DNA from: Azonexus sp.
GTDB lineage: Bacteria; Pseudomonadota; Gammaproteobacteria; Burkholderiales; Rhodocyclaceae
Assembly (NCBI GenBank): GCA_030691385.1
Contig: JAUYEI010000014.1
Span: 8,908-72,907, forward strand
Reading direction: 5' to 3'
DNA length: 64,000 nt
Made by a program: the position numbers and the translations under genes. The notes beneath the pieces were generated by a model, which worked only from the letters and a program-made list of their open reading frames with translations, did not search any database and was not told the DNA's origin. Position 1 is the first letter of the stretch; every line of letters starts with the position of its first letter. Shown piece after piece: positions 1,244 through 45,392 of this stretch.

Positions 1244-2122
1244 ATGTTTGATTACGAAGCTGCGTTTTCCAGGAATATAGGGTGGGTGACTGAGAAAGAA
1301 CAGGCACGATTGCGTGAGTCGTGTGTTGCTATTGGCGGCATGGGCGGTGTAGGAGGCATTCACCTGCTGACCTTGGCGCGGCTAGGTATCGGTCGCTTCA
1401 GAATCTCGGAGTTTGATGAGTTCGAGATAGTCAATTTCAACCGCCAAGTCGGGGCTACGGTCAGTACTATTGGGCGTAAGAAGATTGACGTTCTGAAAGA
1501 GATGGCCTTAGACATTAATCCGGAGATTGAAATTGAACTCTTCCCGAATGGGGTTCAACCAGACAACGTTAGCGTATTTCTCAAGGGTGTTGACCTCTAC
1601 GTTGACGGGTTGGATTTTTTTGCGTTCGGTGCTCGACGTTTGACTTTCTCTGCTTGTGAAGCCAATGGAATTCCAGTTGTCACCGTCGCGCCCTTGGGGC
1701 TTGGTGCAGCAACGCTCGTATTTGCACAAGGTGGAATGTCTTTCGAAGATTATTTCGGCTTTGAGGGATGCGATGAAATGGAGATGGCAATCCGATTTCT
1801 TGTTGGTTTATCGCCCGCAATGCTTCAACGTGGTTACGTTGCCGATATGAGTCGGGTCAACCTGGCCGAACGACGGGGCCCGTCGAGTATTGCCGCCTGT
1901 CAACTATGTGCCGGGGTTGCTGCTGTTGAAACAATGAAGCTACTGCTCGGTCGGGGAGGTGTAAGGCTAGCCCCCTGGGGAAGCCAGTTTGATGCATATC
2001 GCATGCGGTATGTCCGCACCTGGCGTCCTGGTGGGTATCGGAATCCGCTACAGCGCCTGATGCGGAGTTTGGTTCGTCGGCAGTTGGCGCTGATGGCAAG
2101 GAAAACTGACAATGACTCGTGA
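1244..2122 (+). CDS. ThiF/MoeB-family adenylyltransferase (TyzB / OxzB N-domain-like)
   Basis: GGMGGVGG nucleotide-binding loop, EFDEFEIVNFNRQ and GRKKID motifs, no CxxC Zn sites. GGAGG RBS upstream. Confidence 0.85.
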   Translation: MFDYEAAFSRNIGWVTEKEQARLRESCVAIGGMGGVGGIHLLTLARLGIGRFRISEFDEFEIVNFNRQVGATVSTIGRKKIDVLKEMALDINPEIEIELFPNGVQPDNVSVFLKGVDLYVDGLDFFAFGARRLTFSACEANGIPVVTVAPLGLGAATLVFAQGGMSFEDYFGFEGCDEMEMAIRFLVGLSPAMLQRGYVADMSRVNLAERRGPSSIAACQLCAGVAAVETMKLLLGRGGVRLAPWGSQFDAYRMRYVRTWRPGGYRNPLQRLMRSLVRRQLALMARKTDNDS

Positions 2123-3185
2123 CGTGCTGATAAAAATTCTCGACCTGGTTCGTTGGGCGCCGAGTGGTGACAACACGCAGCCGTGGCAATTTGAAATCGT
2201 GGCAGACGATCATATTGCAGTACACGGTTTTGATACCAGGGAGCATGTCCTTTACGATTTTGATGGGCATCCGAGCCAGATGGCTCACGGTGCACTCATT
2301 GAAACATTGCGAATTGCGGCGAGTGGATTTCAGCTTGCGAGCGAGTGGCATGTGCGATCAGGATCTCCAGATAACGCTCCTGTTTATGATGTTCTATTGA
2401 GGAGCGCGCCGGATTTGTTGGCTGATCCGTTGCTGCCGTATATTGAAAAGCGTGTAGTCCAACGTCGTCCCATGCGTATGACACCACTCACTTCGGAACA
2501 GCGTAACAGTCTTTCACTGGCCACCGGCGGCAATTATTCCGTCCAGTTTTTCGAGAAGACGAGTGATCGGATCAAGGTGGCAAGATTGCTTTGGGATAAT
2601 GCATATATTCGTCTGACTTGCCCGGAAGCCTTCCTGGTACATAGGGAGATCATTGAATGGGGGGCGCGCTTTAGTCATGATCGCTTGCCTGAAGAGGCAA
2701 TTGGTGTTGATCCAATGACGGCCAAACTCATGAAGTGGGTGATGCAAAGCTGGGGCAGGGTGGAATTCTTCAATCGCTACCTGATGGGAACGGTTGCGCC
2801 ACGCATCCAGCTTGATTTTGTCCCGGCTATTGCTTGCGCGGGGCATCTGTTGCTTAAGCCGCGTAAACCACTAAATTCTTTGCATGATTACGTTGAGGCC
2901 GGAATGGCGATGCAACGTCTTTGGCTGACGGCTACTTCGCTTGGCTTGCATCTGCAACCAGAGATGACACCCGTGATATTTCGCTGGTATGCCAAGGCTG
3001 GTCGAGAAATATCGGCCCACTCGAAGATAAACAAAAAAGTTGAATTGATGGCTTCACGCTTTGAGCGCTTGGTTGAGGCTTCAAGTGATCAGAGCTTTGC
3101 TTTCTTTTGTCGAATTGGCCAATCGGTTCCCCCGAAATCCCGGTCTTTACGCAAGAGCCTGAGCCAACTGCTCGTTAGTAAATAG
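2112..3185 (+). CDS. Nitroreductase-superfamily protein (TyzC / OxzB C-domain-like)
   Basis: WAPSGDNTQPW N-terminal motif and AGMAMQRLWLTATSLGLHLQP second nitroreductase motif. Overlaps the ThiF gene by 11 nt. Confidence 0.8.
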   Translation: MTRDVLIKILDLVRWAPSGDNTQPWQFEIVADDHIAVHGFDTREHVLYDFDGHPSQMAHGALIETLRIAASGFQLASEWHVRSGSPDNAPVYDVLLRSAPDLLADPLLPYIEKRVVQRRPMRMTPLTSEQRNSLSLATGGNYSVQFFEKTSDRIKVARLLWDNAYIRLTCPEAFLVHREIIEWGARFSHDRLPEEAIGVDPMTAKLMKWVMQSWGRVEFFNRYLMGTVAPRIQLDFVPAIACAGHLLLKPRKPLNSLHDYVEAGMAMQRLWLTATSLGLHLQPEMTPVIFRWYAKAGREISAHSKINKKVELMASRFERLVEASSDQSFAFFCRIGQSVPPKSRSLRKSLSQLLVSK

Positions 3186-3209
3186 GTTTTGCATCATCAA
3201 CAATGACAA

Positions 3210-3240
3210 TAAAAAAGCCGCCCGAAGGCGGCTTTACTTT
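3210..3240 (-). terminator. Intrinsic terminator between converging nitroreductase and PEP-CTERM genes
   Basis: AAAGCCGCC-cgaa-GGCGGCTTT hairpin (3214-3235) with an A-run on the left (U-tail on the minus strand) and a T-rich right side. Confidence 0.8.
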
Positions 3241-3251
3241 TAGAGCAAGTA

Positions 3252-4049
3252 TTATTTGGCAGAACGGCGACGGCGGAGAGCACCAACGCCGAGCAAACCC
3301 AAGCCAACCAGAGCCAGAGAAGCGGGTTCAGGAACAACGGTGACTTGGTTGATGGTCAAGTCAAGTGCAACTTTGCTGCCAGTCGGGTCAATAATGGCCT
3401 GCAATGCGCCAAGATTTCCCCAATCAACCGCGCCGCCAGCGCCACAGGTGACGACAACGCCCGGAAGGCTGAACGTGTTGGTACAGTCAAGGAAGCCCAG
3501 CAGCGGAAGAAGACTTGATACGCCATTCGGAAGTACGGCGGGATTTACTTCGTGAGCGATCAAAGATACCTTGGACCATTGGGTGCTTGAGGTAAAGGCA
3601 CCGAGTTCAAAACCAAAATCGCCATCGGAAAAAATGGTCTTCAGCTCAATAAAAGTTCCGAAAGGATTGAACGATGCACCAAGTCCGAATATCGTCGGAT
3701 CCGAGAAAGACATTGCTGCGGTAGAGCCATCCCAACGAACCAAACCACGGCCGCCAGTCAGCGACTCAGTGCTGAACGACAGCGCGCCACCGGCAACTTG
3801 AATGCTGGCGGAACCACCAGGGTTAAACGGATCTTGATTCAGCACTTCGACACCAATGTCGCGATATCCGCCGATGATATCCGTGCCACCAGTCGCCACT
3901 TGAGAGAACAAAGCGTTACCATCAACGACGGTATCGGTGAGTTTGGCTTGTGAGGTGCTAAACAGGTCGATCGTGCTGATCAACGCTGCGTTTGCAGCGG
4001 AACTGAACGACAGTGCGACTACTGCTGCCGCGATAAGAGTTTTTTTCAT
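3252..4049 (-). CDS. PEP-CTERM sorting domain-containing secreted protein
   Basis: Signal peptide MKKTLIAAAVVALSFSSAANA (ATG 4049, GGAG RBS). C-terminus VPEPASLALVGLGLLGVGALRRRRSAK = PEP motif + TM helix + basic tail. Confidence 0.95.
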   Translation of the reverse strand: MKKTLIAAAVVALSFSSAANAALISTIDLFSTSQAKLTDTVVDGNALFSQVATGGTDIIGGYRDIGVEVLNQDPFNPGGSASIQVAGGALSFSTESLTGGRGLVRWDGSTAAMSFSDPTIFGLGASFNPFGTFIELKTIFSDGDFGFELGAFTSSTQWSKVSLIAHEVNPAVLPNGVSSLLPLLGFLDCTNTFSLPGVVVTCGAGGAVDWGNLGALQAIIDPTGSKVALDLTINQVTVVPEPASLALVGLGLLGVGALRRRRSAK

Positions 4050-4109
4050 GAGGATTCTCCGATGTGTCTGGATGGAAATTACAGTGTTTGAACTTACGCA
4101 GTGATCTAA

Positions 4110-4125
4110 AGCGATATGCGTGCCA
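4110..4125 (-). promoter_or_regulatory. sigma54 (-24/-12) promoter of the PEP-CTERM gene
   Basis: Minus strand TGGCACGCATATCGCT = GG-N10-GC, close to consensus TGGCAC-N5-TTGCW. Confidence 0.75.
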
Positions 4126-4200
4126 GCATGATAAAAACCTTTATTAGTCAGTTGGTAACGTTTTTTTTCTTCCTGCATGAGCGCTATCAAAAACAGCCCG

Positions 4201-4217
4201 TGTAAAACATTCCGACA
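4201..4217. promoter_or_regulatory. Upstream activator site (PEP-box-like, TGT-N11-ACA) for a sigma54 activator
   Basis: TGTAAAACATTCCGACA about 110 bp upstream of the inferred TSS. PEP-CTERM genes are known to carry such boxes with sigma54 sites (PrsR-type activator). Confidence 0.6.
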
Positions 4218-4257
4218 GTATTTTCTTCACCGGGCATTTCTGCGTCGCAAACGAAAC

Positions 4258-4962
4258 TCAAACAGATTTTGCGGCATTCTCTGGAAGCTGAGCGCTTGGC
4301 GCCGTTCTTCCAATCAATTTGGCCGGAATGCCACCCCATATTTCACCCGGGCCTATTTGGGTGCCTTTTGTTACTACAGCTCCGGTGGAAACAATAGCGC
4401 CATCGCCGATCGTCACGCCAGAAAGCACCGTTGCGCCAGCACCTATCGTTACATTGTTCCCCAATTGAATGGGGTAATGCGCCAGCTTTTTTCCCTCGAT
4501 CACGTGTGGAACAAGCAAAGCATACTGGCCAACAATACTATTTCTGCCAATTTCGACAAATTGCGCGTCGAGAATAATGCCTGAGCTATAGGTGTTAGCG
4601 CCAAGTTTTGCGCCCAAGCCCAGATACACCAATCGCATGATGGGCACGGGAACGAAGCCACTCCGCAGAATTGGGTAGAAAAGGATCAGATAAAACAAGA
4701 GGTAAACGTGGTAGACAAACTCCTGTTGAGATTCTTCCGGGATATCTCCGATGCGCAGTGGGAAGAACAACAGAAAGGCCCTGAAAAAAAATAAAGCGAA
4801 GGAGTAGATCAGAAGCCCGGAAAAAAAAACCACGGCTATTTCGTGGTATCCACCCAGCGGAATCAGCCTCGCCAACAGCAAGGCTAGGCCTATCCCCATG
4901 CTAACGGCCAGTGTCAGCAGCAGTGAAAACACAACTATCTGCCAACTGTTAATTTTTCTCAT
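4258..4962 (-). CDS. Membrane-anchored left-handed beta-helix (hexapeptide repeat) acyltransferase
   Basis: Three N-terminal hydrophobic segments, then hexapeptide repeats (IQLGNNVTIGAGATVLSGVTIGDGAIVSTGAVVT) ending in WGGIPAKLI. Confidence 0.8.
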   Translation of the reverse strand: MRKINSWQIVVFSLLLTLAVSMGIGLALLLARLIPLGGYHEIAVVFFSGLLIYSFALFFFRAFLLFFPLRIGDIPEESQQEFVYHVYLLFYLILFYPILRSGFVPVPIMRLVYLGLGAKLGANTYSSGIILDAQFVEIGRNSIVGQYALLVPHVIEGKKLAHYPIQLGNNVTIGAGATVLSGVTIGDGAIVSTGAVVTKGTQIGPGEIWGGIPAKLIGRTAPSAQLPENAAKSV

Positions 4963-5000
4963 CAAATAATCCTTGCACTCAAACGATTTTCAAAGACCCG

Positions 5001-6221
5001 TTATGTGTTGCTGAAGCTGTTTTTATCGTATTCGGCAATTATATGATGAGACAATGGGTGCAAGCCGCCAACCTGTCCTGGATTGCCAGCCAATTCCTCG
5101 GCGCGAGCCGCGTATTTCGGGTCGCCCGTGAGTAATTTGATGGCTTGCCGTAACTGGGTTGGGTGGGCACGGTCGGCACGAATCATTAGCCCGGCCCCAA
5201 AGGTTACGATAGCTTCCATATTGAGAAACTGATCCATGTTTTGGGCAATTCCCAAGACAGGTACTCCGCAGCTTAACGCCTGGTTGGTAGTCGGGCTTCC
5301 GCCGTTACAGATGACCAGGTTTGCGTGCTGGCAAACGACCGATCCTGGCAAGTAGTCGAAAATCTGCGTGGTTGGGCGCTTTGGTTTCAGTTGTAGAGGC
5401 TTTCCTGCCGTCGCTATAACTATCCTGCTTCCGGACTGCTCCAGGATAGGCACGATGCTCTCGATAATTTGTGGATTGCCGGAACTGCCCATGGTGATAT
5501 ATGTCAGTGGTCCGTTGCCTGAGAGGTAGTCCAAGTCCGCATCGAAATCGGGCGACCAGGCGATCGGGCCAATGAAGTCGGCACCTTTATGTGCCGATAC
5601 CTCAGGGAATAATGCTGGGAAGTTGGCAAACAATCGCAGGTCGGCGTCGGTGTAGCAGCGACGCAGGTCATAACCCAGCGAGGGTTGACCGAATTTTTTC
5701 CGTAGCCGTTCAAGTGGCAAGGCGTGCAGGTGGAATGCGAAGGGGGCTATTCGGCGAAAAATGAATTCGGCCAAATGGATTGGCGCGTAGCGGGTGAATT
5801 TAAAAACAGGCAGTGGTGGGCGTAGTGGTCTTTCCGGGCTCCAGTATGCATCGCAGATAGCGATGTAGGGGATTGACCGCAGACGAGCGCTTACTGACAG
5901 CGAGAGTCGAAAGTCGCCGATGACGACGTCAGGCTTTATTTGATCGATTAGGGAGAGATCTTCGTCCACATAACGGCAGAGCGTTGAGAAGTCATATAAG
6001 GGGGAGCCATGTGCCAGTTTTTGGGCAAATATCTTTGCGTCCTGACATTCGAGTCCGAGAACCGGGAAGGGCAGTCCTGCCGTGAGTTTTGAGAATGCTT
6101 CGGGGCGGCAAAGGGTGACATCAAACTGAGTTGCATCCAATTCTTTGGCCAGCATCAAGGGCCGTGCAACGTGGGCAAGGGTGGCTCCTTCGGCAAAGAA
6201 AAGCACTTTTAGCTTGTTCAA
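5001..6221 (-). CDS. GT1/MGT-like glycosyltransferase (GT-B fold); start approximate
   Basis: N-terminal FFAEGATLAHVARP, C-terminal YITMGSSG and ICNGGSPTT...GVPVLGIAQNMDQ motifs. TTG 6221 chosen to avoid overlap with the upstream gene. Confidence 0.8.
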   Translation of the reverse strand: MNKLKVLFFAEGATLAHVARPLMLAKELDATQFDVTLCRPEAFSKLTAGLPFPVLGLECQDAKIFAQKLAHGSPLYDFSTLCRYVDEDLSLIDQIKPDVVIGDFRLSLSVSARLRSIPYIAICDAYWSPERPLRPPLPVFKFTRYAPIHLAEFIFRRIAPFAFHLHALPLERLRKKFGQPSLGYDLRRCYTDADLRLFANFPALFPEVSAHKGADFIGPIAWSPDFDADLDYLSGNGPLTYITMGSSGNPQIIESIVPILEQSGSRIVIATAGKPLQLKPKRPTTQIFDYLPGSVVCQHANLVICNGGSPTTNQALSCGVPVLGIAQNMDQFLNMEAIVTFGAGLMIRADRAHPTQLRQAIKLLTGDPKYAARAEELAGNPGQVGGLHPLSHHIIAEYDKNSFSNT

Positions 6222-6270
6222 TGGGATACCCGTGACCTGTTTTGGGGGCGGTGAGCACCCATAAGCCAAG

Positions 6271-7608
6271 TTAAAAACTGTAGCGGACCTCTGAATAGAC
6301 GCGATCCTGCTGGTCATATCTTCCAAACAGGCCAGTTGGAGGCCCCTTGAAGATATCAGTGCCAATCAACAGGCGCCAATTGCGTTCAAAGTTCCAGGTC
6401 AAACGTGGGCGCAGTAGCCAATCATTCCGGTTCAGGCTGGAAATGAAAATGGCTTGGGCTTCCCAGTTGTTGATGAATTTACTGTTGAATAGAAGGCTGT
6501 AGCCGTTTTCTTCCTTGTCCGGAATCTGGGTGGCGTTGTAGTTGGAATAACGACGCTGGAATAGCTGAACATTGAAACGACTTTCAGCTGGAAGGGTGAA
6601 ATCGAGGCCGACGGCCCAGTCGAGTGTATTTTGTCGAACGACACCATCACTGTCGGCAAGGTCCAGTACGCTGAAGCTGCGGCCTGTCGTATATACGCCT
6701 TCGGCCTTCAAGACCACGTCTCCGAAGTCCTTGGACAGCGTGCTCCCGTATTGATGGATACGGTCGTGGCGCGCTTGATAGACGACTGTCGGGCCATCGA
6801 ATTGGCGGTAGAAGGTTGGGCTGATATCTGTGCTGCGGTAGTAGAAGCCTGAAATGTCCCAGCCATTTTTCAGGGTTGAGAGGCGTAGACCGTAGTTCAT
6901 GTTGTCGGCGTTACGCTCCGGTCTTGTTTCCGGGAGGTAGCGCACGTTGGGGGCTGCGGGCATTGGATAAAATCCCGAACCGGGTTTGCCGATGTTGTCG
7001 TAGGTGGCGACTGGAATCCATAGCAATTCGGCGTGGAAGTCGTTGGCAAAGTATTCAGCGCGGGCGGCCCATTGTGGAATGCGCATCTGGTCGAATTCGG
7101 GGAGAACGAATTCTCGGAGATCGCGGGCGGAGACGACATCGGCGAAGAACAGGCCGACCATTTCACCCCAGACGACGTGCTGTTTGCCGAAACGGAAGTC
7201 CCAGTTGCCAGTGCTGTAGTCAAGGTAGTTTTCGCGAAGTTCCACGTTGTAGCGTTGATTGCGTTCGACATCGGCAGGGTAGTAGTCGTTGATGCTGTAG
7301 GCCGCGTCGTAGCCCAAGCGTGCGCCCAACTTCCATTTGAGTCCTTCGCCCAGTTTGCCGGAGCTGCCGAGTTCAGCACGTGTGCGAAGTTTCGACCAGT
7401 GTTCTGGATTGCCAGTCGTCCGAGCGGCTTCAAACTGAAGAAAACCTTTAATTCCGGGGGAGGTGTCCTTGGCAGGCGCGGATACCGTTGGCAGGTCGTC
7501 GCCGAAAAGTGCATCGCGGCTCAATAAATTGTCGGCGGCGTTTGCCCCGAGTGCCAAGTAGCTGGCCGCTATGATGGTCAGGCGGTGGACGGTTTTTTGT
7601 GCAGTCAC
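6271..7608 (-). CDS. Outer-membrane beta-barrel protein (DUF1302-like)
   Basis: Signal peptide after GTG 7608 (AGGA RBS), LRENYLDY...RFGKQHVVWG motif, alternating beta-strand pattern, C-terminal YSF. Confidence 0.7.
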   Translation of the reverse strand: MTAQKTVHRLTIIAASYLALGANAADNLLSRDALFGDDLPTVSAPAKDTSPGIKGFLQFEAARTTGNPEHWSKLRTRAELGSSGKLGEGLKWKLGARLGYDAAYSINDYYPADVERNQRYNVELRENYLDYSTGNWDFRFGKQHVVWGEMVGLFFADVVSARDLREFVLPEFDQMRIPQWAARAEYFANDFHAELLWIPVATYDNIGKPGSGFYPMPAAPNVRYLPETRPERNADNMNYGLRLSTLKNGWDISGFYYRSTDISPTFYRQFDGPTVVYQARHDRIHQYGSTLSKDFGDVVLKAEGVYTTGRSFSVLDLADSDGVVRQNTLDWAVGLDFTLPAESRFNVQLFQRRYSNYNATQIPDKEENGYSLLFNSKFINNWEAQAIFISSLNRNDWLLRPRLTWNFERNWRLLIGTDIFKGPPTGLFGRYDQQDRVYSEVRYSF

Positions 7609-7636
7609 GGGGTATTCCTGTCTTGCGGTAAGGTAT

Positions 7637-8386
7637 TTATTCGTCGTCGGATTCGGGCAGTGCGCGAACACGCGCCAGGTTCCAGGTTTTGTCGGTTTCG
7701 TTGCGCACACCGAAGGCGGTGATGCAGCCATCTTCCATCTGGACCAGACGGTCAGCACGATCAATGACTTTCTGGTCGTGCGTCGAGAATATGAATGTGG
7801 TTTTCAGGTGGCGGTTGATCTTCTTCATCAGGCTGAGGATTTCGCGGCCGGTTGCCTTGTCGAGGTTGGCGGTTGGCTCATCGGCCAGGACGATGCTGGG
7901 CTTGATGGCCAGGGCGCGGGCAATGGCGACACGTTGGCGTTGTCCGCCGCTTAGCTGATTGGGGCGGTGGTTGGCAAATTGGCTGAGACCAACGATATCC
8001 AGGAAGTAGTCGACCCGCATTTTGCGTTCTTCGGCGGAAATATCGGTGCGACGGAGCAGGGGGTATTCGACGTTTTCCGCAGCAGAAAGAACTGGGAGCA
8101 GATTGAAGGTCTGAAAGATGAAGCCGATTGAGCGAGAGCGCAGATCGGCTAGTTCGTTGGCAGATTTTTCCGAGACGTCTTCATCGTTGATAAATATCTT
8201 GCCGCGAGTCGGTTTGTCGATGCAACCGATCAGGTTGAGCAGGGTGGTTTTGCCACTGCCGGATGGGCCGGAGATGGCGAGAAAGACGCCTGCATCAATG
8301 GACCATGTAATATCATTCAAGGCGTGGACGGTCTGTTCGCCGAGCTGGTAATCCTTGAAAACGTGTTCGATTCGGACAACGCTCAT
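7637..8386 (-). CDS. LolD/MacB-family ABC transporter ATP-binding protein
   Basis: GPSGSGKTT Walker A, LSGGQRQRVAIARAL signature, LADEPTANLD Walker B, STHD switch. Confidence 0.92.
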   Translation of the reverse strand: MSVVRIEHVFKDYQLGEQTVHALNDITWSIDAGVFLAISGPSGSGKTTLLNLIGCIDKPTRGKIFINDEDVSEKSANELADLRSRSIGFIFQTFNLLPVLSAAENVEYPLLRRTDISAEERKMRVDYFLDIVGLSQFANHRPNQLSGGQRQRVAIARALAIKPSIVLADEPTANLDKATGREILSLMKKINRHLKTTFIFSTHDQKVIDRADRLVQMEDGCITAFGVRNETDKTWNLARVRALPESDDE

Positions 8387-8440
8387 GACCGGTTTCTGCC
8401 GTCAGTATTTAGACCATCAGGATTGTGCGGGAGAGTATTC

Positions 8441-9235
8441 ATGGCAAGTAATAACTGCATTCGGAATGGCCGGTGGTGCGTTGCGCTGACGTGTGGCATT
8501 TTTCTCTTGCTCCAGTCGCTGACTGTTGCAGCGCAAGGATCAACTGTTGCGCCGACCGATGATGCGATTGCCCGCAGTATAGTTGAAAAGGCAGACAAGG
8601 TTCGCTTTCCGGCCGAAGGCTTTCAGGTTGACATTGTAATAAATTCCCTGCGGCCGGACAAAGAGGCCGATACCCGAAAATACCGTGTTCTTTCAAAGGG
8701 AAATGAAAACACGGTCGTCATGGTTACCGAACCGGCAGCGGAGCGTGGTCAGATCATTCTCATGAAAGGGCGCGATCTGTGGGTCTTCATGCCGGAGGTA
8801 TCTCAGCCGGTCCGGATTTCGCTGGCGCAGCGCCTGACGGGGCAGGTGGCCAACGGCGATCTGGCGCGTGCCAATTTCGCCGGTGACTACAATCCGAAAA
8901 TCATCGGTACCGAAAAAATCGGCAACGATATTTTTCAAATTCTTGAATTAATTGCCGTTGACCGTAGCGTTACCTATCAGCGCGTCGTTTATTGGGTCAA
9001 TGAAAAGTCCGGCTGGCCTTTGAAGGCCGAGTTCTACTCGCTGTCCAACCGCCTCATGAAGAAATGCAGCTACGAGAATTTCCAGACGTTGGCCGGACGG
9101 GTTCGACCAACCCGGCTGGTCATGGAGGATGCACTGCGCAATGGGGAAAAATCCGTTCTGGATTACTCGGATATGAAATTACGCGATTTGCCGGACAAGG
9201 TCTTTACCAAGGAATACCTGAAGAAGCTGGACTGA
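8441..9235 (+). CDS. Outer-membrane lipoprotein-sorting (LolA-like) periplasmic protein
   Basis: Signal peptide, then G..ILMKGRDLWVFMP...PVRISLAQRLTGQVANGDL motif typical of LolA-like sorting proteins. ATG 8441 with GGGAG RBS. Confidence 0.75.
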   Translation: MASNNCIRNGRWCVALTCGIFLLLQSLTVAAQGSTVAPTDDAIARSIVEKADKVRFPAEGFQVDIVINSLRPDKEADTRKYRVLSKGNENTVVMVTEPAAERGQIILMKGRDLWVFMPEVSQPVRISLAQRLTGQVANGDLARANFAGDYNPKIIGTEKIGNDIFQILELIAVDRSVTYQRVVYWVNEKSGWPLKAEFYSLSNRLMKKCSYENFQTLAGRVRPTRLVMEDALRNGEKSVLDYSDMKLRDLPDKVFTKEYLKKLD

Positions 9236-9239
9236 GCGA

Positions 9240-9611
9240 TTAGTCGAAGATCAGTGCTGCAGCCACCTTCCTGCCTTCGGCGGCAAGGATGTTGTAGGTC
9301 CGGCAGGCGGCTTTCAGGTCCATGATTTCCAGCCCGATGCCGGCCGGGGCGAAGGGGCGGAGCAGGGCGCCGGGTGGGAAGCGCAGGCTTTTTCCGGTGC
9401 CGAGCAGGACGATTTCGGTACCTAAACCCAGCAGAATTTGCATGTCTGCTTCGCTCAAAGTGTTGACGGTCGCAGTGGTCCAGGCAGGAATGATCGACTC
9501 GGGTAGCAGAATCAGGTTTTTCTCGTGTTTTTCGTGGTTGACCACAGCATAGTCGTCGCCATAGGCGGTGAATAAATTAAGTCCTGCGGTATTCGAGATG
9601 TGTAGTTTCAC
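9240..9611 (-). CDS. Mth938-like (DUF498) protein
   Basis: VLLGTGKSLRFP and LEIMDLKAACRTYNILAAEGRKVAAAL motifs. Real start GTG 9611; the track ORF is extended through antisense alaA. Confidence 0.88.
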   Translation of the reverse strand: MKLHISNTAGLNLFTAYGDDYAVVNHEKHEKNLILLPESIIPAWTTATVNTLSEADMQILLGLGTEIVLLGTGKSLRFPPGALLRPFAPAGIGLEIMDLKAACRTYNILAAEGRKVAAALIFD

Positions 9612-9719
9612 TGCGCGATCATTCCGAAAAGCCCGCCAAAATTGCGGTGCACCATACGATAAAGTAGGATTATACCTTTGGCCCTCACGGGCCATACGCC
9701 GCCAAGCCGGAAGATTCCA

Positions 9720-10949
9720 ATGAAACACGTCAAGAAATCCACCAAACTCGCCAACGTCTGTTACGACATTCGCGGCCCTGTGCTGCAAAAAGCCAAGCAG
9801 ATGGAGGAGGAGGGCCACAAGATCATCAAGCTGAACATCGGCAATCTGGCCGCGTTCGGTTTTGATTCGCCCGAGGAAATCCAGCAGGACATGATCCGCA
9901 ACCTGCCCAATGCGGCCGGCTATACGGACTCCAAGGGTATCTTCGCGGCGCGCAAGGCGATCATGCACTACACCCAGCAAAAAGGTATCAAGGGTGTGAC
10001 GCTGGAAGATATCTACGTCGGCAACGGTGTGTCCGAGTTGATCGTCATGGCCATGAACGCCTTGCTTGATGCGGGCGATGAGGTGCTCGTCCCGGCGCCG
10101 GATTACCCGCTGTGGACGGCCGCGATCAGCCTGTCCGGCGGGACGCCCAAGCACTACCTGTGCAATGAGGAAAAGGGCTGGTTGCCGGATCTCGACGATA
10201 TCCGCAGCAAGATCAATGCACACACCAAGGCGATCGTGCTGATCAACCCGAACAATCCGACCGGCGCCCTGTATCCGGATGACCTGCTGTGCGAGATCAT
10301 CGACATCGCCCGTCAGCATCACCTGACCATTTATGCCGACGAGGTATACGACAAGGTGTTGTATGACGCCGCCAAGCACACGTCGATTGCCTCGCTGGCC
10401 GAGGATGTGCTGATGATCACCTTCAATGGTCTGTCGAAGAATTACCGCTCCTGTGGTTATCGCGCCGGCTGGATGATCGTTTCCGGCGACAAGCGACATG
10501 CCAAGGACTACATCGAGGGCCTCGACATGCTGGCCTCGATGCGTCTATGCGCCAATGCACCGGGACAGCATGGCATCCAGACAGCCCTGGGCGGTTACCA
10601 GAGTATCGACGACCTGATCAAGGAAGGCGGCCGCCTGCGTCGCCAGCGCGATATCGCACATGAATTGATCACGGCCATTCCTGGCGTTAGCTGCGTGAAA
10701 CCGAAGGCGGCGCTCTACATGTTCCCCAAGCTGGATCCCAAGGTCTATCCCATCAAGAACGACCAGCAGTTCATTTCCGAATTGCTGCAGGAGGAAAAGG
10801 TCCTGCTCGTTCAAGGGACGGGCTTCAACTGGCCGCACCCGGATCACTTCCGCCTGGTATTTCTGCCGCACGAGGATGATCTGCGGGAGGCCATCGGTCG
10901 CATCGCCCGTTTCCTCGAAAATTACCGTAAACGCCACGGTACGAACTAG
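9720..10949 (+). CDS. alaA: PLP-dependent aminotransferase AlaA
   Basis: YDIRGPVL...KLNIGN, INPNNPTG, FNGLSKNYRSCGYRAGW (PLP Lys). Usual position upstream of hom. Confidence 0.9.
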   Translation: MKHVKKSTKLANVCYDIRGPVLQKAKQMEEEGHKIIKLNIGNLAAFGFDSPEEIQQDMIRNLPNAAGYTDSKGIFAARKAIMHYTQQKGIKGVTLEDIYVGNGVSELIVMAMNALLDAGDEVLVPAPDYPLWTAAISLSGGTPKHYLCNEEKGWLPDLDDIRSKINAHTKAIVLINPNNPTGALYPDDLLCEIIDIARQHHLTIYADEVYDKVLYDAAKHTSIASLAEDVLMITFNGLSKNYRSCGYRAGWMIVSGDKRHAKDYIEGLDMLASMRLCANAPGQHGIQTALGGYQSIDDLIKEGGRLRRQRDIAHELITAIPGVSCVKPKAALYMFPKLDPKVYPIKNDQQFISELLQEEKVLLVQGTGFNWPHPDHFRLVFLPHEDDLREAIGRIARFLENYRKRHGTN

Positions 10950-31004: not shown

Positions 31005-31005
31005 A

Positions 31006-38827: not shown

Positions 38828-38941
38828 GGGTTCGTAAGGAAATAAGCTGGATATTTGGCCGCTGGGTCGGGATGCGATGCAAGGCGCGGAGCGCGCCCGA
38901 GCCCAGCGAGCCAAATGTTCAAGTTATTGACGAACGAGCCC
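38828..38941. mobile_element. 114-bp palindromic MITE with TAA target duplication
   Basis: Begins GGGTTCG, ends CGAGCCC. About 45-bp imperfect inverted arms. TAA on both flanks (38825-27 is the slyD stop; 38942-44). Confidence 0.6.
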
Positions 38942-38944
38942 TAA

Positions 38945-39554: not shown

Positions 39555-39738
39555 TGAGCTGAACGGCAAGGGTGTCGCGGGCGACTGCGAATCTGGAGGA
39601 AGCCGAAGGCAAAGCGCTAGCCTAGCGAACAAAGAAGCGGATAAGAGGCGGCACAGTGGGGAAAGACGACCGATATCGTCAAAGCCTGAAGCGGCAGGAC
39701 GGGCAGGGAATGGGTTTCATGCGGGCTCCACGCCCGCA

Positions 39739-41628
39739 TCATGCCGGACGAATCGTTCCCAGGTTAAGCTTGACGCCCTTCTTCATCTTGCCGACGACGT
39801 GCATTTCGCAGGCTTTGCAGTCGAACTTGAGGATCAGTTTTTCGTTGCCGTTGATCAGCGTCATCGGGTCCGGTTTGAGGTGTTTCACCTCTTTCGGGCA
39901 CAGGTTGAAGCTGTAGCGCAGGCAGTGGCGCGTGATCATCAGCGAGACCATGCCCTTTTCATTGCCGGCCTCGTAGGCTTCCTCGATCAGCTTGACGCCG
40001 TGTTTCTCGTAGAACTGGCGGGCCTTGGTGTTGAAGACGTTGCCGAGGTAGCTCAGTTCTTCCTGCGGGTAGGGCACCGGGTTGGCGGCCGGGGTGGCGC
40101 GCGGCGGGCGCGGGTGGCTGGCCAGGCGGGCGGCTTCGAGCTGTTCGGTGGCTTCGCGACGCAGGGCGTTGATGGCGCTGACGGGCAGGAACCATGGCTG
40201 GCTGAGCTTGAGTTCAACCGGCTCGGCGACGAACATCGTGTTGCCGAATTTGCCGAGGTTTTCCTTGAGCTTGGCCATCGCTGGTTCAGGGTTCTGGGCC
40301 AGTTGCCATTCTGATTTTGGCCCATTTTTCCGGTTGACCGTGGCAGTCACGCCATCTTCGTCGGTCAGGGTCAGCGCGAAGCCGTCTTCGGTTTCGACCA
40401 GCACCGGTTTCACCGAAATGCGGCGGTCGGCCGATTCCTTTTCCAGAGAACGCTCGAATTCCTGGTCGCGGTTGCGGAAGAGGGTGGCGCCGGCGGTCAG
40501 TTCTTCCGGCATTTCGGCCGGGAACAGGGTCTTGCCATCGGCGCGGTTGATGCGCATGCCGACGACTTCACCGTGGCCGTCGTAGAAACAGACACCGTCG
40601 CCGTTGTTGAAGGGTTTTTCAGCATTGACCGTGAAAGAACCGTCGCCGATGTCGACGACTTCACCGATCAGCTCGCCGACGAAACTGGGCGAATCGAAGG
40701 CGCCGATGTCGTCCTGACGGTCGTTGGCGAAATAATCGGTGTAGCCGCGGTTGAACGTCTTGTCCGGCTGCGGCGTGAAGGTCCAGGTGCTGCGACCGCT
40801 TGAGGCGCGGGTGAATTCGGGATTGTTGGCGATGATCTCGTCGAGCAGGCCGCGGTAGTGCGCGGTGATGTTCTTGACGTAGCTGAGGTCCTTGAGCCGT
40901 CCCTCGATCTTGAAGGAGCAGACGCCGGCGCGGGCCAGGTCGAGCATGTTGGCGGTCTGGTTGTTGTCCTTCATCGAGAGCAGATGCTGGTTCTCGGTGA
41001 TCGTCTTGCCCTTGTCGTCGACCAGCGTGTAAGGCAGGCGGCAGGCCTGCGAACACTCGCCGCGATTGGCGCTGCGGCCGGTGTGGGCCTGGCTGATGTA
41101 ACACTGGCCGCTGAACGCGACGCACAGCGCACCGTGAACAAAATATTCCAATGAAACATTGGCTTGCGAAGCAATATTGATAATTTCGTTTAAGCTGCAT
41201 TCGCGCGCCAGAACGACTTGTGAGAAGCCGACGTCTTCGAGAAACTTGACCTTGTCGGCGTTGCGATTGTCGGTCTGCGTGCTGGCGTGGAGCTGGATCG
41301 GCGGCAGGTCGAGTTCGAGCAGGCCCATGTCCTGGATGATCAGCGCATCGGCCCCGGCTTCGTAAAGTTGCCAGGCGAGCTGGCGGCTGTCTTCAAGCTC
41401 GTCGTCGCGCAGGATGGTGTTGAGCGCGACGAAGACCTTGGCCCGGTAGCGGTGGGCAAAATCGCAGAGCCGTTTGATTTCGGCGACATCGTTGCCGGCG
41501 CCGTAACGGGCACCGAAAGCCGGGCCGCCGATGTAGACGGCGTCGGCCCCGTGCTTGATGGCTTCGATGCCGAAATCGGCGTTCTTGGCCGGGGCGAGGA
41601 GTTCGAGCGGGTGTTGAATTCGAGTCAT
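39739..41628 (-). CDS. rlhA: U32 family protein with DUF3656 (23S rRNA 5-hydroxycytidine synthase RlhA-like)
   Basis: ELLAPA, GADAVYIGG, HASTQ, EYFVHGALC...SGQC, SANRGECSQACR, KIEGRLK, ITRHCLR. Confidence 0.82.
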   Translation of the reverse strand: MTRIQHPLELLAPAKNADFGIEAIKHGADAVYIGGPAFGARYGAGNDVAEIKRLCDFAHRYRAKVFVALNTILRDDELEDSRQLAWQLYEAGADALIIQDMGLLELDLPPIQLHASTQTDNRNADKVKFLEDVGFSQVVLARECSLNEIINIASQANVSLEYFVHGALCVAFSGQCYISQAHTGRSANRGECSQACRLPYTLVDDKGKTITENQHLLSMKDNNQTANMLDLARAGVCSFKIEGRLKDLSYVKNITAHYRGLLDEIIANNPEFTRASSGRSTWTFTPQPDKTFNRGYTDYFANDRQDDIGAFDSPSFVGELIGEVVDIGDGSFTVNAEKPFNNGDGVCFYDGHGEVVGMRINRADGKTLFPAEMPEELTAGATLFRNRDQEFERSLEKESADRRISVKPVLVETEDGFALTLTDEDGVTATVNRKNGPKSEWQLAQNPEPAMAKLKENLGKFGNTMFVAEPVELKLSQPWFLPVSAINALRREATEQLEAARLASHPRPPRATPAANPVPYPQEELSYLGNVFNTKARQFYEKHGVKLIEEAYEAGNEKGMVSLMITRHCLRYSFNLCPKEVKHLKPDPMTLINGNEKLILKFDCKACEMHVVGKMKKGVKLNLGTIRPA

Positions 41629-41634
41629 GGCGCC

Positions 41635-42456
41635 TTAGTACGTAAAACGCGGGGCAAGTTCGTCGAGATTGAACTCGCGCAGGATGGCTTCGGCCCGTTC
41701 GCGGGCATTTTTGCGCGGAGCGCCGCGCTTGCTGGCGATGATCAGCTCGTTCTTCATTGAATGTTCCCAGCCGACCAGCTCAGTCACGGTGACGTCATAG
41801 CCATGCGACTCCAACAGCAGGCAGCGCAGGACGTTGGTCAGGTGGCTGCCGAGTTCGCGGGTGTGGATCGGGTGTCGCCAAAGTTCGGACAGCGGTTTTT
41901 GCGACAGCGATTCGTTCTTCCGGGCCCGCATGGTGGCGGCTACTTCGGCCTGACAGCAAGGGACAAGGACGATATGGCGGGCGTTCTTGGTCAGGGCAAA
42001 ACGGATGGCGTCGTCGGTCGCCGTGTTGCAGGCGTGTAGCGCTGTCACGACATCGACGCTGGCCGGCAGCTCGGGTGCAGTCAGCGAGTCCTCGACCGTG
42101 CAGGCAAGGAAGCGCATACGCTCAAAGCCAAGCCGGGTGGCCAGTTCGCGGGATTTTTCGACAAGCTCCGGGCGTGTTTCGATGCCGATGATCGCGCCGG
42201 TGGCGCGATTCTTGATGCAGAGATCGTAGAGGATGAAACCGAGATAGGACTTGCCGGCCCCATGGTCGACCAGGGTCTCGGCGCCATCCAGCAGCGGTTC
42301 GATGAACTGGTAGAGGTGATAGACCTGTTTGAGCTTGCGCCGCGTGTCCTGATTGAGCTTGCCGTCTCGGGTCAGGATGTGGAGTTCCTTGAGCAGTTCG
42401 ATGGACTGCCCGGGACGGATTTCAGGGATATCGGCGGTGGTATTGAGCTTCTTCAT
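41635..42456 (-). CDS. Class I SAM-dependent methyltransferase (Methyltransf_32-like)
   Basis: VDHGAGKSYLGF, ALHACNTATDD, VPCCQ. Confidence 0.85.
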   Translation of the reverse strand: MKKLNTTADIPEIRPGQSIELLKELHILTRDGKLNQDTRRKLKQVYHLYQFIEPLLDGAETLVDHGAGKSYLGFILYDLCIKNRATGAIIGIETRPELVEKSRELATRLGFERMRFLACTVEDSLTAPELPASVDVVTALHACNTATDDAIRFALTKNARHIVLVPCCQAEVAATMRARKNESLSQKPLSELWRHPIHTRELGSHLTNVLRCLLLESHGYDVTVTELVGWEHSMKNELIIASKRGAPRKNARERAEAILREFNLDELAPRFTY

Positions 42457-42566
42457 GGGGCGACATTATCGCATTCAAACTTCTGTCACTTTCGTGTCAA
42501 CCGAATCAAAGTCGAGTCGTTATACGACACATGGTGATCAAACACCGCATACCTACGGAGATATAA

Positions 42567-42845
42567 ATGGGCAGTCTGAGCAACGAATCCTTCGATCAAT
42601 TCCTGGATTCCCTGAAGAAAGCCGGTATTACCATTTCCAACGAAGCCGAACTGCGCGAGCGGCTGGCTGAAGCCCAACGCTGGCGTTTCGCCTTCCAGAC
42701 TCTGGCAGCCAACGGCAAGGTTATCGGCATCAATTTTGAAGATCATTCCGAAGGTCGCAATGAAGCTGAAATCAGCCGCGCTTTCAACGAATTCCAGTTT
42801 TCCGAAAAGACCAAGGCGGTTTTCTCCGCCAGCCTCAAGCACTAA
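42567..42845 (+). CDS. Hypothetical 92-aa protein
   Basis: Clean ATG ORF with GGAG RBS filling an intergenic gap and followed by a hairpin. No recognised motif. Confidence 0.65.
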   Translation: MGSLSNESFDQFLDSLKKAGITISNEAELRERLAEAQRWRFAFQTLAANGKVIGINFEDHSEGRNEAEISRAFNEFQFSEKTKAVFSASLKH

Positions 42846-42883
42846 GACTTCAAGTTTCATCCTTCCGCATTGGCGGGGGGAAG

Positions 42884-42916
42884 AAGAAAAAACGGGCGCC
42901 GAGTGGCGCCCGTTTT
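42884..42916. terminator. Terminator hairpin downstream of the 92-aa ORF
   Basis: AAAACGGGCGCC-gagt-GGCGCCCGTTTT. Confidence 0.7.
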
Positions 42917-42943
42917 GCGTTGACTGCGACGGTCAACCGGAAA

Positions 42944-42973
42944 AAATGGCCGAAATCGAAATTTCGGCCATTT
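42944..42973 (-). terminator. Terminator hairpin downstream of ettA
   Basis: AAATGGCCGAAAT-cgaa-ATTTCGGCCATTT with an A-run on the left. Confidence 0.75.
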
Positions 42974-42979
42974 GCTTTT

Positions 42980-44644
42980 TTAGCGCGTAATCGGCTTGTA
43001 GCGAATCCGCTTGGGCTTGGCACCTTCTTCGCCCAGACGCTTGCGCTTGTCTTCCTCGTATTCCTGGAAATTGCCTTCGAAGAAATTCCACTGCGAATCG
43101 CCTTCGGCCGCGAGGATGTGCGTACAAATGCGGTCGAGGAACCAGCGATCATGCGAGATGACCATCGCGCAGCCGGGGAATTCGAGCAGGGCGTCTTCCA
43201 GCGCGCGCAGCGTTTCGACGTCGAGGTCGTTCGACGGTTCGTCGAGCAGCAGCACGTTGCCGCCCGTCATCAGCGTCTTGGCCAGGTGCAGGCGACCGCG
43301 TTCGCCGCCGGACAGATTGCCGACCTGCTTGCCCTGGTCGGCGCCCTTGAAGTTGAAGCGGCCGATGTAGGCGCGTGACGGCATTTCAAACTTGCCGATC
43401 TGCAGGATGTCGCTGCCTTGGGCGAGTTCCTCGAATACTGTCTTCGAGCCATCCAGGCAGTCACGCGATTGGTCCACATAGGCCATCTTGACCGTCGGGC
43501 CGATGTCGACCGTGCCGGAGTCGGGCTGTTGCTGGCCGGTGATCATCTTGAACAGGGTCGATTTACCGGCACCGTTCGGGCCGATGATGCCGACGATGGC
43601 GCCGGCCGGGATGGTGAAGCTGACGTTGTCCATGAGCAGCTTGTCGCCGAAGGACTTGGTGACGCCGTTGAATTCGATGACCTTGCCGCCCAGACGGTCG
43701 CCGACCGGGATGAAGATTTCCTGGGTCTCGTTGCGTTTCTGGTATTCCTGGCTCGACAACTCTTCAAAACGGGCGATGCGGGACTTCGATTTGGCCTGGC
43801 GCGCCTTGGGGTTTGAACGCACCCATTCCAGTTCCTGCTTCATCGCCTTCATGTGGGCGTCGATCTGCTTGTTTTCCGTTTCCAGGCGGGCTTCCTTCTG
43901 CTCCAGCCAGCTAGAGTAGTTGCCCTTGTACGGAATGCCGTGGCCGCGGTCGAGTTCGAGAATCCATTCGGCAGCGTTGTCGAGGAAATAGCGGTCGTGG
44001 GTGACGGCGACGACGGTGCCGGGGAAGCGGACGAGGAATTGTTCGAGCCATTCGACCGATTCGGCGTCGAGGTGATTGGTCGGTTCGTCGAGCAAAAGCA
44101 TGTCCGGCTTGGCGAGCAGCAGCTTGCACAGCGCGACGCGACGCTTCTCGCCGCCGGACAGGTTGCCGATCACGGCCTCCCAGGGCGGCAGGCGCAGGGC
44201 GTCAGCGGCCAGTTCCATCTGTGCTTCGGTGTCGGAGCCGGCGGTGGAAATGATCGCTTCGAGGCGGGCCTGTTCTTCGGCCAGCTTGTCGAAATCAGCT
44301 TCCGGGTCGGCGTAGGCGGCATAGACCTCATCGAGCTTGGCCTGGGCCTGCATCACTTCGCCGAGCGCCGATTCGACTTCCTCGCGCACCGTCTTGGCGG
44401 CATCGAGCTGCGGCTCCTGCGGCAGGTAGCCGATGGAAACGCCGGCCAGGTGTTGCACTTCGCCGTCGTATTCCTTGTCCACGCCGGCCATGATCTTGAG
44501 CACGGTCGATTTGCCCGAGCCGTTCAGGCCGAGCAGGCCGATCTTGGCGCCGGGGAAGAAAGAGAGGGAAATATCCTTGATGATCTGCCGCTTGGGCGGA
44601 ACGATCTTGCTCACGCGGAGCATGGACATGACGTATTGAGCCAT
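42980..44644 (-). CDS. ettA: Energy-dependent translational throttle protein EttA (ABC-F)
   Basis: MAQYVMSM, ISLSFFPGAKIG.LGLNGSGKST, two ABC domains, WVRSNPKARQAKSK linker. Confidence 0.95.
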   Translation of the reverse strand: MAQYVMSMLRVSKIVPPKRQIIKDISLSFFPGAKIGLLGLNGSGKSTVLKIMAGVDKEYDGEVQHLAGVSIGYLPQEPQLDAAKTVREEVESALGEVMQAQAKLDEVYAAYADPEADFDKLAEEQARLEAIISTAGSDTEAQMELAADALRLPPWEAVIGNLSGGEKRRVALCKLLLAKPDMLLLDEPTNHLDAESVEWLEQFLVRFPGTVVAVTHDRYFLDNAAEWILELDRGHGIPYKGNYSSWLEQKEARLETENKQIDAHMKAMKQELEWVRSNPKARQAKSKSRIARFEELSSQEYQKRNETQEIFIPVGDRLGGKVIEFNGVTKSFGDKLLMDNVSFTIPAGAIVGIIGPNGAGKSTLFKMITGQQQPDSGTVDIGPTVKMAYVDQSRDCLDGSKTVFEELAQGSDILQIGKFEMPSRAYIGRFNFKGADQGKQVGNLSGGERGRLHLAKTLMTGGNVLLLDEPSNDLDVETLRALEDALLEFPGCAMVISHDRWFLDRICTHILAAEGDSQWNFFEGNFQEYEEDKRKRLGEEGAKPKRIRYKPITR

Positions 44645-44762
44645 TGAACAACCTACCTGTCGTCGTAAAGATTAATGATGCGCGAGTCTACGAGGCTTCA
44701 ATGCAAATGACCAGCCTCCCGAAGCTCGGGTGCTGGTCATTTACGTTGAAGCGAAGGGAAAA

Positions 44763-45392
44763 CTAGAAGCTCAGACTGCCGAGCGGACGGTGCAGCAGCA
44801 CCGCCGGCGCATCCACCCGGGGGCAGGTGCGAACGGTACCAATCTGCGAAAACCCGAATTCCCGGCGGTAGTAGGCCGCATGACGCGGATTGACTTCGAT
44901 GACCGCATCGGTCACGCCAAAAACTGCCCGGGCGTATTGATAACTTGAGCGGAAAAGTGATTTCAGCAATTCGGGATCATGGGCATCGACATCCACCGCC
45001 AGCCTTGTTACTTCGCAGAGAACGCGGGACGGCTGGCGCAGCCCGGCCAGTTCCTCGGCGTAGAGATTGTCGGCGAGCAGGCCGGCGCTGGAATCGCGCG
45101 AAGCGGTCAGCGTCGCCACCAGTTCGCCCTCCAGCCAGGCGCCCAGCGTCGCGTGATTCGGATCTTCGATCAGTTGTCGCGGTGGCGAAATCCGGTAGCC
45201 GCGCCAGGCGTACATGCGGCGAACCAGGGCGCTGCAGGCACGGTGCTGGTGGTAGCTCACGGCTGGGGCAACCACCAGTTCCGGTTGCTCAAAACCCCTG
45301 CTGGAGCCGAGCGAACCCGGCCGCAAGGCAGCTAGCATTAAGCCGGGCCGGAGCGTCGAACTTGAGGGTATGACGTTTTGCATAGTCTGCAT
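44763..45392 (-). CDS. FeeM-type N-acyl amino acid synthase (GNAT-like)
   Basis: RRMYAWRGY, GLLADNLY, LCEVTRLAV, VIEVNPRHAAYY...GF, CPRVDAPAVLL match the FeeM/NAS catalytic domain as recalled. ATG at 45392 or 45383. Confidence 0.75.
   Translation of the reverse strand: MQTMQNVIPSSSTLRPGLMLAALRPGSLGSSRGFEQPELVVAPAVSYHQHRACSALVRRMYAWRGYRISPPRQLIEDPNHATLGAWLEGELVATLTASRDSSAGLLADNLYAEELAGLRQPSRVLCEVTRLAVDVDAHDPELLKSLFRSSYQYARAVFGVTDAVIEVNPRHAAYYRREFGFSQIGTVRTCPRVDAPAVLLHRPLGSLSF

Follow-up and report, generated by a model that had tools for sequence, protein, structure and literature searches.

Genes of the two loci

The window analysed here is a stretch of 64,000 nucleotides (nt) from a genome of Azonexus sp. 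(contig C108:8908-72907; host genome 3.45 Mb in 129 contigs), and it contains two loci that may contribute to a single lipid pathway (Table 1). At the left locus, a gene pair at 1244-3185 encodes a ThiF-like, ATP-dependent cyclase (hereafter ThiF) and a flavin oxidase of the nitroreductase superfamily; in a separate operon 41.6 kb away lies a gene for a FeeM-type N-acyl amino acid synthase (NAS), named FeeM-A here, which is the candidate feeder of the pair. A previous reading made from the sequence alone (the sequence-only reading) had described the left genes as a cyclase/oxidase-like pair without an adjacent acyltransferase, and the right gene as an NAS without adjacent tailoring genes some 42 kb away. 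It had proposed that the two form a split pathway under two signalling inputs. The coordinates, the gene identities and the separation were all borne out, and the proposal itself is weighed below.

The ThiF open reading frame (ORF) matched positions 5-291 of the 296 in NF006077/PRK08223, a ThiF-family equivalog, with 470 bits (cut-off 266 bits), and PF00899 with 138 bits. Two fusion profiles were matched in their ThiF portions as well, PRK14851 (ThiF and nitroreductase) and PRK14852, the latter a single profile of 989 positions that joins a FeeM-like region, ThiF and nitroreductase. The protein carries the motifs GGMGGVGG, NFNRQ and VDGLD, which in ThiF/MoeB enzymes mark an intact nucleotide-binding site, and it has no CxxC, the sulfur-relay motif of such enzymes. 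Among solved structures its closest relative is TcdA, the tRNA t6A cyclodehydratase, which has been reported to form an oxazolone ring (PMC12596934).

The nitroreductase ORF overlaps the ThiF ORF by 11 nt and is translationally coupled to it. It matched PF00881, and scored 113 bits over positions 375-718, the C-terminal half, of NF005901 (the Rv1355c family) and 102 bits on NF047509 (Acg family flavin mononucleotide oxidoreductases); both scores fall under the whole-protein cut-offs, and the NF005901 model was built on a fusion. The motif RWAPSGDNTQPW is present in the protein, and no sequence relative of it was found among solved structures. These matches indicate that the pair is probably an OxzB/TyzBC-type enzyme set in split form, a kind that acts on the products of an NAS.

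A recurrent ThiF module without its synthase

A sample of 301 genomes of the host's order, each at least 90% complete, was profiled for ThiF (NF006077) and FeeM (PF21926). ThiF was detected in 61 genomes, FeeM in 80 and the two together in 56; five genomes had ThiF alone and 24 had FeeM alone. A FeeM gene lay within 2.5 kb of 34 of the 62 ThiF genes and within 12 kb of 14 more, giving a total of 48/62 (77%). Only three cases were seen of ThiF with FeeM on the same contig but more than 12 kb away, the host genome and one congener among them. A general association of ThiF with FeeM is supported by these counts, with orthologues lying nearly always beside FeeM in the order's other families, and by the fusion of all three activities in PRK14852.

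The content of 55 ThiF loci of the order was determined from the ORFs within 10 kb of ThiF, labelled by their similarity to the window genes. FeeM occurred in 40 of these loci, often as two or three tandem copies, and the nitroreductase in 30, sometimes fused to ThiF as a protein of 658-816 amino acids. MacB-like permeases were found in 25, a DUF1302 barrel in 22, a LolD-like ATPase in 22, a LolA-like protein in 18, a polysaccharide export protein in 21, Wzz in 20 and an MGT-like glycosyltransferase in 12. A module of one to three FeeM genes, ThiF, an optional nitroreductase, two MacB-like permeases, LolD- and LolA-like proteins and a DUF1302 barrel is recurrent in the order; it is attached to PEP-CTERM exopolysaccharide loci and sometimes adds a glycosyltransferase and an acetyltransferase. 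Inside the module the synthase often has more than one copy: one relative (G229, L144:5051-7908) has three tandem FeeM genes directly upstream of ThiF, and two tandem copies were seen in several further genomes.

All loci of the host's family, which come from the genus and one sister genus, carry the module without FeeM, and the left locus of the window thus lacks exactly the gene proposed to be supplied from afar. No NAS gene or acyltransferase of that type was found in the left locus or in the 8.9 kb to the left of the window. Those 8.9 kb consist solely of exopolysaccharide genes on the minus strand, which code for two MacB/FtsX permeases, a polysaccharide export protein, Wzz, a tyrosine kinase, an AAA ATPase and a UDP-N-acetylglucosamine 2-epimerase. 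A dedicated acyltransferase directly to the left of the window, the finding that the sequence-only reading had named as fatal to its proposal, is thereby ruled out. Since FeeM is absent from the module in Azonexus and Dechloromonas, the substrate of ThiF would come from a synthase encoded elsewhere.

FeeM-A and the other candidate synthases of the genome

FeeM-A scored 163 bits on PF21926 (cut-off 27 bits) and aligned to the FeeM structure 2g0b with an E-value of 3e-13. In this alignment CEVTRLA of FeeM-A lies opposite AEVVQFA of FeeM, so that the acidic residue is matched; the aligned glutamate is reported to be the catalytic base of FeeM in the paper on its structure. The gene is flanked by a bactofilin gene upstream and by EttA downstream, with no tailoring genes beside it, in agreement with the sequence-only reading. 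Its ATG is at 45392, 23 nt past the bactofilin stop codon.

The listing of other NAS and TIGR03694 genes that had been suggested as a check was carried out over the whole genome. PF21926 matched two genes, FeeM-A and a second paralogue, FeeM-B, which is an ORF of 436 amino acids on the minus strand of another contig (C38:13823-15133) and is 28% identical to FeeM-A. FeeM-B has a C-terminal extension of ~215 amino acids with no Pfam match. It overlaps the start of a Cache-HAMP histidine kinase gene, and adjoins Liv-type ATP-binding cassette (ABC) amino acid uptake genes and an indolepyruvate:ferredoxin oxidoreductase. Nothing in the genome exceeded the cut-off of TIGR03694, the PEP-CTERM/exosortase-associated acyltransferase family (111.95 bits); FeeM-A gave no match and FeeM-B 16.5 bits, so that neither is a member. 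The top TIGR03694 score, 36 bits, belonged to an OlsB-like gene on contig C106. This gene was rejected as a third feeder, as it resembles an ornithine N-acyltransferase and is followed by a PlsC-type acyltransferase, the two probably forming an olsBA pair for ornithine-lipid synthesis.

In a tree of 112 FeeM proteins, the 18 bactofilin-linked FeeMs, FeeM-A included, grouped as a single clade (support 99). It is nested, on a weak backbone (~80), among the short FeeMs whose genes neighbour ThiF or exopolysaccharide genes, and FeeM-B fell in a separate long-branch clade (support 100). FeeM-A is thus placed by the tree in the same subfamily as the ThiF-adjacent FeeMs, and appears as the sole resident FeeM of that subfamily. 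Its closest relatives outside the Rhodocyclaceae (45-49% identity) include NAS genes of Massilia and Rugamonas; about half of those fetched from these two genera have, immediately after them, a ThiF gene whose product is 59-66% identical to the window ThiF.

Another relative (G047, L085:6167-7942) carries, away from its exopolysaccharide locus, a recent duplicate of the FeeM of that locus (sister pair, support 99). The duplicate stands behind two TGTC-N10-GACA sites, and up to 6 kb from it no homologue of GlrR, the kinase or bactofilin was detected.

Surroundings of the left locus

The permease gene FtsX1, the first of two, starts with an ATG at 1166-1164, is divergent from ThiF across a gap of 77 nt and continues to the left of the window. 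Two plus-strand ORFs, 436-762 and 769-1143, were considered as partner genes and rejected as spurious, as they lie inside this permease gene and have no family match. In Dechloromonas sp. ARDL1 (L062:10334-12874) the FtsX1 gene is broken into two pieces that lie ~1.2 kb from each other, one of them containing a stop codon, which suggests an insertion.

On the other side, a hairpin terminator lies between the pair and a convergent PEP-CTERM gene, whose sigma-54 core is kept in two other genomes. The acetyltransferase that follows, 1.1 kb from the pair, is of the sugar O-acetyltransferase type and is not an NAS. The first 10 kb of the window (1-10000) have ~50-53% G+C, as against ~60% across the remainder, and the permease/ThiF segment as a whole is absent from the two closest relatives. 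This part of the window looks like a variable, horizontally exchanged portion of the exopolysaccharide locus.

Table 1. Features of the two loci, in window coordinates
Feature	Coordinates	Strand	Profile or basis
MacB/FtsX-type permease FtsX1, 5' part	1-1166	-	PF02687, PF12704
ThiF-like ATP-dependent cyclase (TyzB / OxzB N-domain type)	1244-2122	+	NF006077
Nitroreductase-superfamily flavin oxidase (TyzC / OxzB C-domain type)	2112-3185	+	NF005901, NF047509, PF00881
Hairpin terminator between convergent nitroreductase and PEP-CTERM genes	3214-3235	.	sequence
PEP-CTERM protein gene with signal peptide, convergent to the pair	3252-4049	-	PF07589, TIGR02595
Sigma-54 -24/-12 core of the PEP-CTERM gene, TGGCACGCATATCGCT	4125-4110	-	motif
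Hexapeptide-repeat acetyltransferase	4258-4965	-	recurs in the module in other families
MGT/EryCIII-like glycosyltransferase	5001-6365	-	recurs in the module in other families
DUF1302 outer-membrane barrel (Lol-like export set)	6271-7764	-	
LolD-like ABC ATPase (Lol-like export set)	7637-8386	-	
LolA-like protein (Lol-like export set)	8324-9235	+	
FeeM-type N-acyl amino acid synthase, FeeM-A (candidate feeder)	44763-45392	-	PF21926
Bactofilin gene, same operon as FeeM-A	45416-45976	-	PF04519
Sigma-54 core of the bactofilin-FeeM operon, TGGCACGCTTATCGCA	46040-46025	-	motif
Two GlrR-type sites, TGTCGCAATTTCACGAC(A/G), 66 nt apart	46115-46198	.	0.02 expected by chance
Histidine kinase, small protein without family match and GlrR-like sigma-54 activator; divergent from bactofilin-FeeM	46331-49693	+	

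The bactofilin-FeeM operon and its promoter

The pairing of bactofilin and FeeM was kept in 18/18 aligned loci of the family, and the arrangement was found in most of ~55 Rhodocyclaceae loci, which include Dechloromonas, Accumulibacter and Propionivibrio. A matching sigma-54 core precedes bactofilin in 17 of 18 loci checked. All genus loci fetched have one or two TGTC-N10-GACA sites at the position seen in the window, and the unit of kinase, small protein and GlrR-like activator is syntenic in all of them. The top match of the activator was NF011695 (GlrR), at 604 bits against a cut-off of 763. PrsR, the regulator of the PEP-CTERM box, was rejected as the activator of this operon, as GlrR is the best family for the adjacent activator and a different contig carries the true PrsR (754 bits); the two exosortases of the genome are on other contigs also. 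On the other flank of the GlrR-like unit, an ORF of 113 amino acids (window 49767-50243) that has no NCBIfam match is preceded by another sigma-54 core, the third (49849-49864, plus strand), with a TGTCG-N8-CGACG site ~80 nt upstream of it.

The sequence-only reading had noted near-identical sigma-54 cores at both loci, the left one belonging to the PEP-CTERM gene. Genome-wide, 17 sites fit TGGCAC-N5-T[TC]GC[AT]. The likeness of the two window cores is real, since only these two of the 17 have GC[AT]TATCGC in common, and they are the most alike pair in the genome. Neither core drives ThiF and the nitroreductase; one serves the PEP-CTERM gene and the other the bactofilin gene, and core similarity does not set the specificity of the activator.

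Distribution within the genus

In 37 genomes of Azonexus and Dechloromonas, ThiF was found in 13, the permease pair in 14, nearly the same set, and FeeM-A in 20. FeeM-A was present in 12 of the 14 module-bearing genomes, as against 8 of the 23 without the module. All 13 ThiF-bearing genomes have some FeeM-family gene, and ThiF was found in none of the ten high-quality genomes that have no FeeM at all. Dependence on an NAS is favoured by these counts, but the genomes are mutually related and not independent, and the counts overstate the association.

The nitroreductase ortholog accompanies ThiF in 3 of the 13 ThiF-bearing genomes. A partial nitroreductase was seen at a contig end in a fourth genome, which is 57% complete and in which ThiF was not found, and a distant nitroreductase-like gene lies beside ThiF in three more of the ThiF-bearing genomes, with Pfam confirmation for one. 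Because the nitroreductase is present in so few ThiF genomes, ThiF, and not the pair, is the conserved unit.

The gaps beside ThiF in the relatives that lack FeeM-A were searched for hidden acyltransferases and none were found. These gaps were rejected as acyltransferase sites, as they contain PEP-CTERM genes, a chemoreceptor, or a nitroreductase with an O-methyltransferase. The last of these is seen in one relative (G035, L069:5453-11895), where a nitroreductase-like gene, an O-methyltransferase and a divergent ThiF lie on one strand between two PEP-CTERM genes. This genome has no short FeeM, and the set recalls the methyltransferase-ThiF-nitroreductase order of Stieleria.

Proposed pathway and the evidence for supply by FeeM-A

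By analogy with the chemical precedents OxzAB (bioRxiv 10.1101/2020.06.11.147165), TyzACB (PMC10404671) and TrzAS (PMC12856293), we infer both the chemistry and the flow of substrate between the loci. The FeeM-type enzyme would acylate an aromatic amino acid. The ThiF-like enzyme would adenylate the carboxylate of the resulting N-acyl (probably aromatic) amino acid and cyclise it to an oxazolone, and the flavin oxidase would desaturate the C-alpha-C-beta bond, which becomes the exocyclic double bond. From the gene context, the Lol-like ABC, LolA-like and DUF1302 set would export the product or a glycosylated derivative of it. On the comparative data, a synthase encoded elsewhere, most likely FeeM-A, would supply the acyl amino acid in this lineage. 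FeeM-A belongs primarily to the separate, vertically inherited bactofilin-FeeM operon, which the GlrR-like activator would drive through sigma-54, and it clearly has a role of its own there; the pair would be an optional, horizontally mobile branch for tailoring and export that draws on the FeeM-A product.

That the pair is fed by a resident synthase of the FeeM family seems to us somewhat probable. That the feeding synthase is specifically FeeM-A is a tentative proposal, and the whole explanation, a split pair supplied in trans by FeeM-A from its own operon, we consider evenly poised. The parts of the split-pathway proposal that stood are the missing FeeM of the module, the fitting subfamily of FeeM-A and the lack of an acyltransferase on the left. 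In the co-occurrence check the association was favoured by the genus counts for FeeM-A and, across the order, by the presence of FeeM in 56 of 61 ThiF-bearing genomes.

A number of observations weigh against this explanation. Two ThiF-bearing genomes of the genus have no FeeM-A, and FeeM-A is retained at the same locus in 8-9 genomes without ThiF. These module-free carriers include the two closest relatives of the host (91% and 82-84% identity, both 99% complete), which are also without the exporter and the permeases. Every genus genome having FeeM-A shows the synteny of bactofilin, FeeM and EttA together with the kinase-activator unit. Divergence was compared in the nine genomes that have both loci: that of FeeM-A tracked the neighbouring GlrR (Spearman rho 0.80, Mantel p 0.0006), and that of ThiF tracked neither GlrR (rho 0.18) nor FeeM-A (rho -0.05), following instead the adjacent permease (rho 0.51, p 0.027). 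Since the divergence of ThiF is unlinked to that of FeeM-A, the module moves among species without regard to FeeM-A. The scarcity of the nitroreductase beside ThiF within the genus counts on the same side, as does the presence of a second FeeM paralogue and an OlsB-like synthase in the genome, by which FeeM-A is not the sole possible feeder.

The regulatory evidence points the same way. The region of 77 nt upstream of the ThiF operon contains no sigma-54 core and no GlrR-type site, and GlrR-type sites are confined to the promoters on the FeeM side. Shared regulation of the two loci was rejected on this result. Of the two signalling inputs proposed by the sequence-only reading, only the one on the FeeM side is supported, by its putative GlrR-type sites and sigma-54 core, and neither element was found for the ThiF operon.

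Alternative explanations

It is possible, if unlikely, that the feeder is FeeM-B, and that the window FeeM serves the bactofilin/GlrR envelope programme only. FeeM-B-type genes were found in 13/13 of the ThiF-bearing genus genomes, including the two without FeeM-A, and the absence of ThiF from the ten high-quality genomes lacking any FeeM is in keeping with this alternative. On the N-terminal part of PRK14852 (positions 28-277), FeeM-B scored 89.5 bits, above both FeeM-A (41.8) and the FeeMs adjacent to ThiF; the latter score 41-65 bits themselves, and this profile was therefore rejected as a means of choosing between the two paralogues. The high score and the full co-occurrence nonetheless tell against FeeM-A. 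FeeM-B is distant from FeeM-A in sequence and in the tree, however, and in the order sample no gene of its type lay beside ThiF (0/8). It is present in ~26 of the 37 genus genomes, with or without ThiF, so that its co-occurrence with ThiF is little informative.

We hold it unlikely as well that in this lineage the ThiF-like enzyme, whether alone or together with the oxidase, is independent of any resident FeeM and acts either on some other carboxylate tied to the PEP-CTERM/exopolysaccharide-Lol module or on N-acyl amino acids made by neighbouring organisms. In every genus locus ThiF lies within the exopolysaccharide export operon, by the permease and PEP-CTERM genes, and it travels with the permease and not with FeeM; five of the 61 ThiF-bearing genomes of the order have no FeeM match, and the rarity of the nitroreductase beside ThiF in the genus also fits. 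On the other hand, the ThiFs of the genus are full-scoring members of the same equivalog as the FeeM-adjacent ThiFs (404-480 bits, one divergent copy 325), a FeeM lies within 12 kb of 77% of the order's orthologues, and not one ThiF-bearing genome of the genus is without a FeeM-family gene.

A further reading, which we judge improbable, concerns the fate of the product. FeeM and ThiF in PEP-CTERM loci might make an activated N-acyl amino acid, an adenylate or azlactone, and not a free metabolite. The activated acyl amino acid might then be transferred to a glycan or envelope acceptor, passing outward by way of the Lol-like ABC, LolA and DUF1302 proteins. The oxidase might be optional in such a scheme, which would fit its absence from about half of the loci. 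In Azonexus and Dechloromonas the acyl amino acid might be supplied by a FeeM-A that is scaffolded by bactofilin and controlled by GlrR, which might tie envelope-stress signalling to the surface chemistry of flocs or exopolysaccharide.

That the pair is a decaying, non-functional remnant of a module that lost its synthase, as the family-wide lack of FeeM, the loss of the nitroreductase from most genus genomes and the permease gene split by insertion in one relative might suggest, is highly improbable, for both ORFs are intact with their cofactor motifs present, their family scores equal those of FeeM-linked loci, the 11-nt coupling overlap is kept and the gene persists in 13 of the species of the genus.

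Relation to known systems

The set of NAS, ThiF-like cyclase and nitroreductase-superfamily oxidase is likewise found in the Tyz system of M. tuberculosis (PMC10404671) and the Oxz system of Pseudoalteromonas rubra (bioRxiv 10.1101/2020.06.11.147165). As in Tyz, ThiF and the oxidase here are two distinct proteins, and they are related to the fused Rv1355c/OxzB form. In Tyz and Oxz the synthase is in the same cluster, whereas here it is 41.6 kb off, in another operon and regulon; the pair here also differs in lying within a PEP-CTERM exopolysaccharide locus with a Lol-like exporter. The word 'exosortase' had 0 matches in the published accounts of oxazolone pathways that were compared, and these make no mention of such a context. 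Clusters of NAS, ThiF and nitroreductase have been described in Massilia (kyonggic acids), Thalassotalea and Stieleria (PMC12479983). Those clusters are contiguous, while the same gene families are unlinked in the host genome.

A link between NAS genes and PEP-CTERM systems is credited to Craig et al. 2011 in the papers that cite it (PMC4897644, PMC11072679). The order sample likewise has FeeM-family genes beside polysaccharide export and chain-length genes of PEP-CTERM loci, with or without ThiF. The window FeeM differs in lying outside the PEP-CTERM locus, and the FeeMs of the host are below the TIGR03694 cut-off.

The bactofilin-FeeM operon resembles the GlrK-QseG-GlrR system of the Enterobacteriaceae in its GlrR-like activator, putative paired TGTC-N10-GACA sites and sigma-54 promoter. 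It differs in the lower score of the activator (604 < 763 bits) and in its targets, which here are bactofilin and an NAS instead of glmY/glmZ. On the whole, the split-pathway proposal is partly supported: the window would hold a known pathway in an unlinked-synthase form, with the module embedded in a PEP-CTERM/Lol-like export locus.

Significance

As to the biological role of oxazolone and N-acyl dehydro-amino acid lipids, the papers on Mycobacterium and on proteobacteria give only hints of a link to stress. Across one betaproteobacterial order, ThiF cyclase genes sit in PEP-CTERM exopolysaccharide loci with a Lol-like exporter. In one family, to which the wastewater genera Dechloromonas, Accumulibacter and Propionivibrio belong, the synthase is kept apart, under a putative envelope-sensing GlrR/sigma-54 switch and together with bactofilin. 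Cultured carriers of both loci are D. agitata DSM 13637, which has ThiF without the oxidase, D. denitrificans ATCC BAA-841 and Dechloromonas sp. ARDL1. If supply in trans is true, these bacteria would offer a testable example in which a mobile module for tailoring and export taps a resident, separately regulated lipid pathway, and the biology of the floc and biofilm matrix would be the place to seek the function of these lipids.

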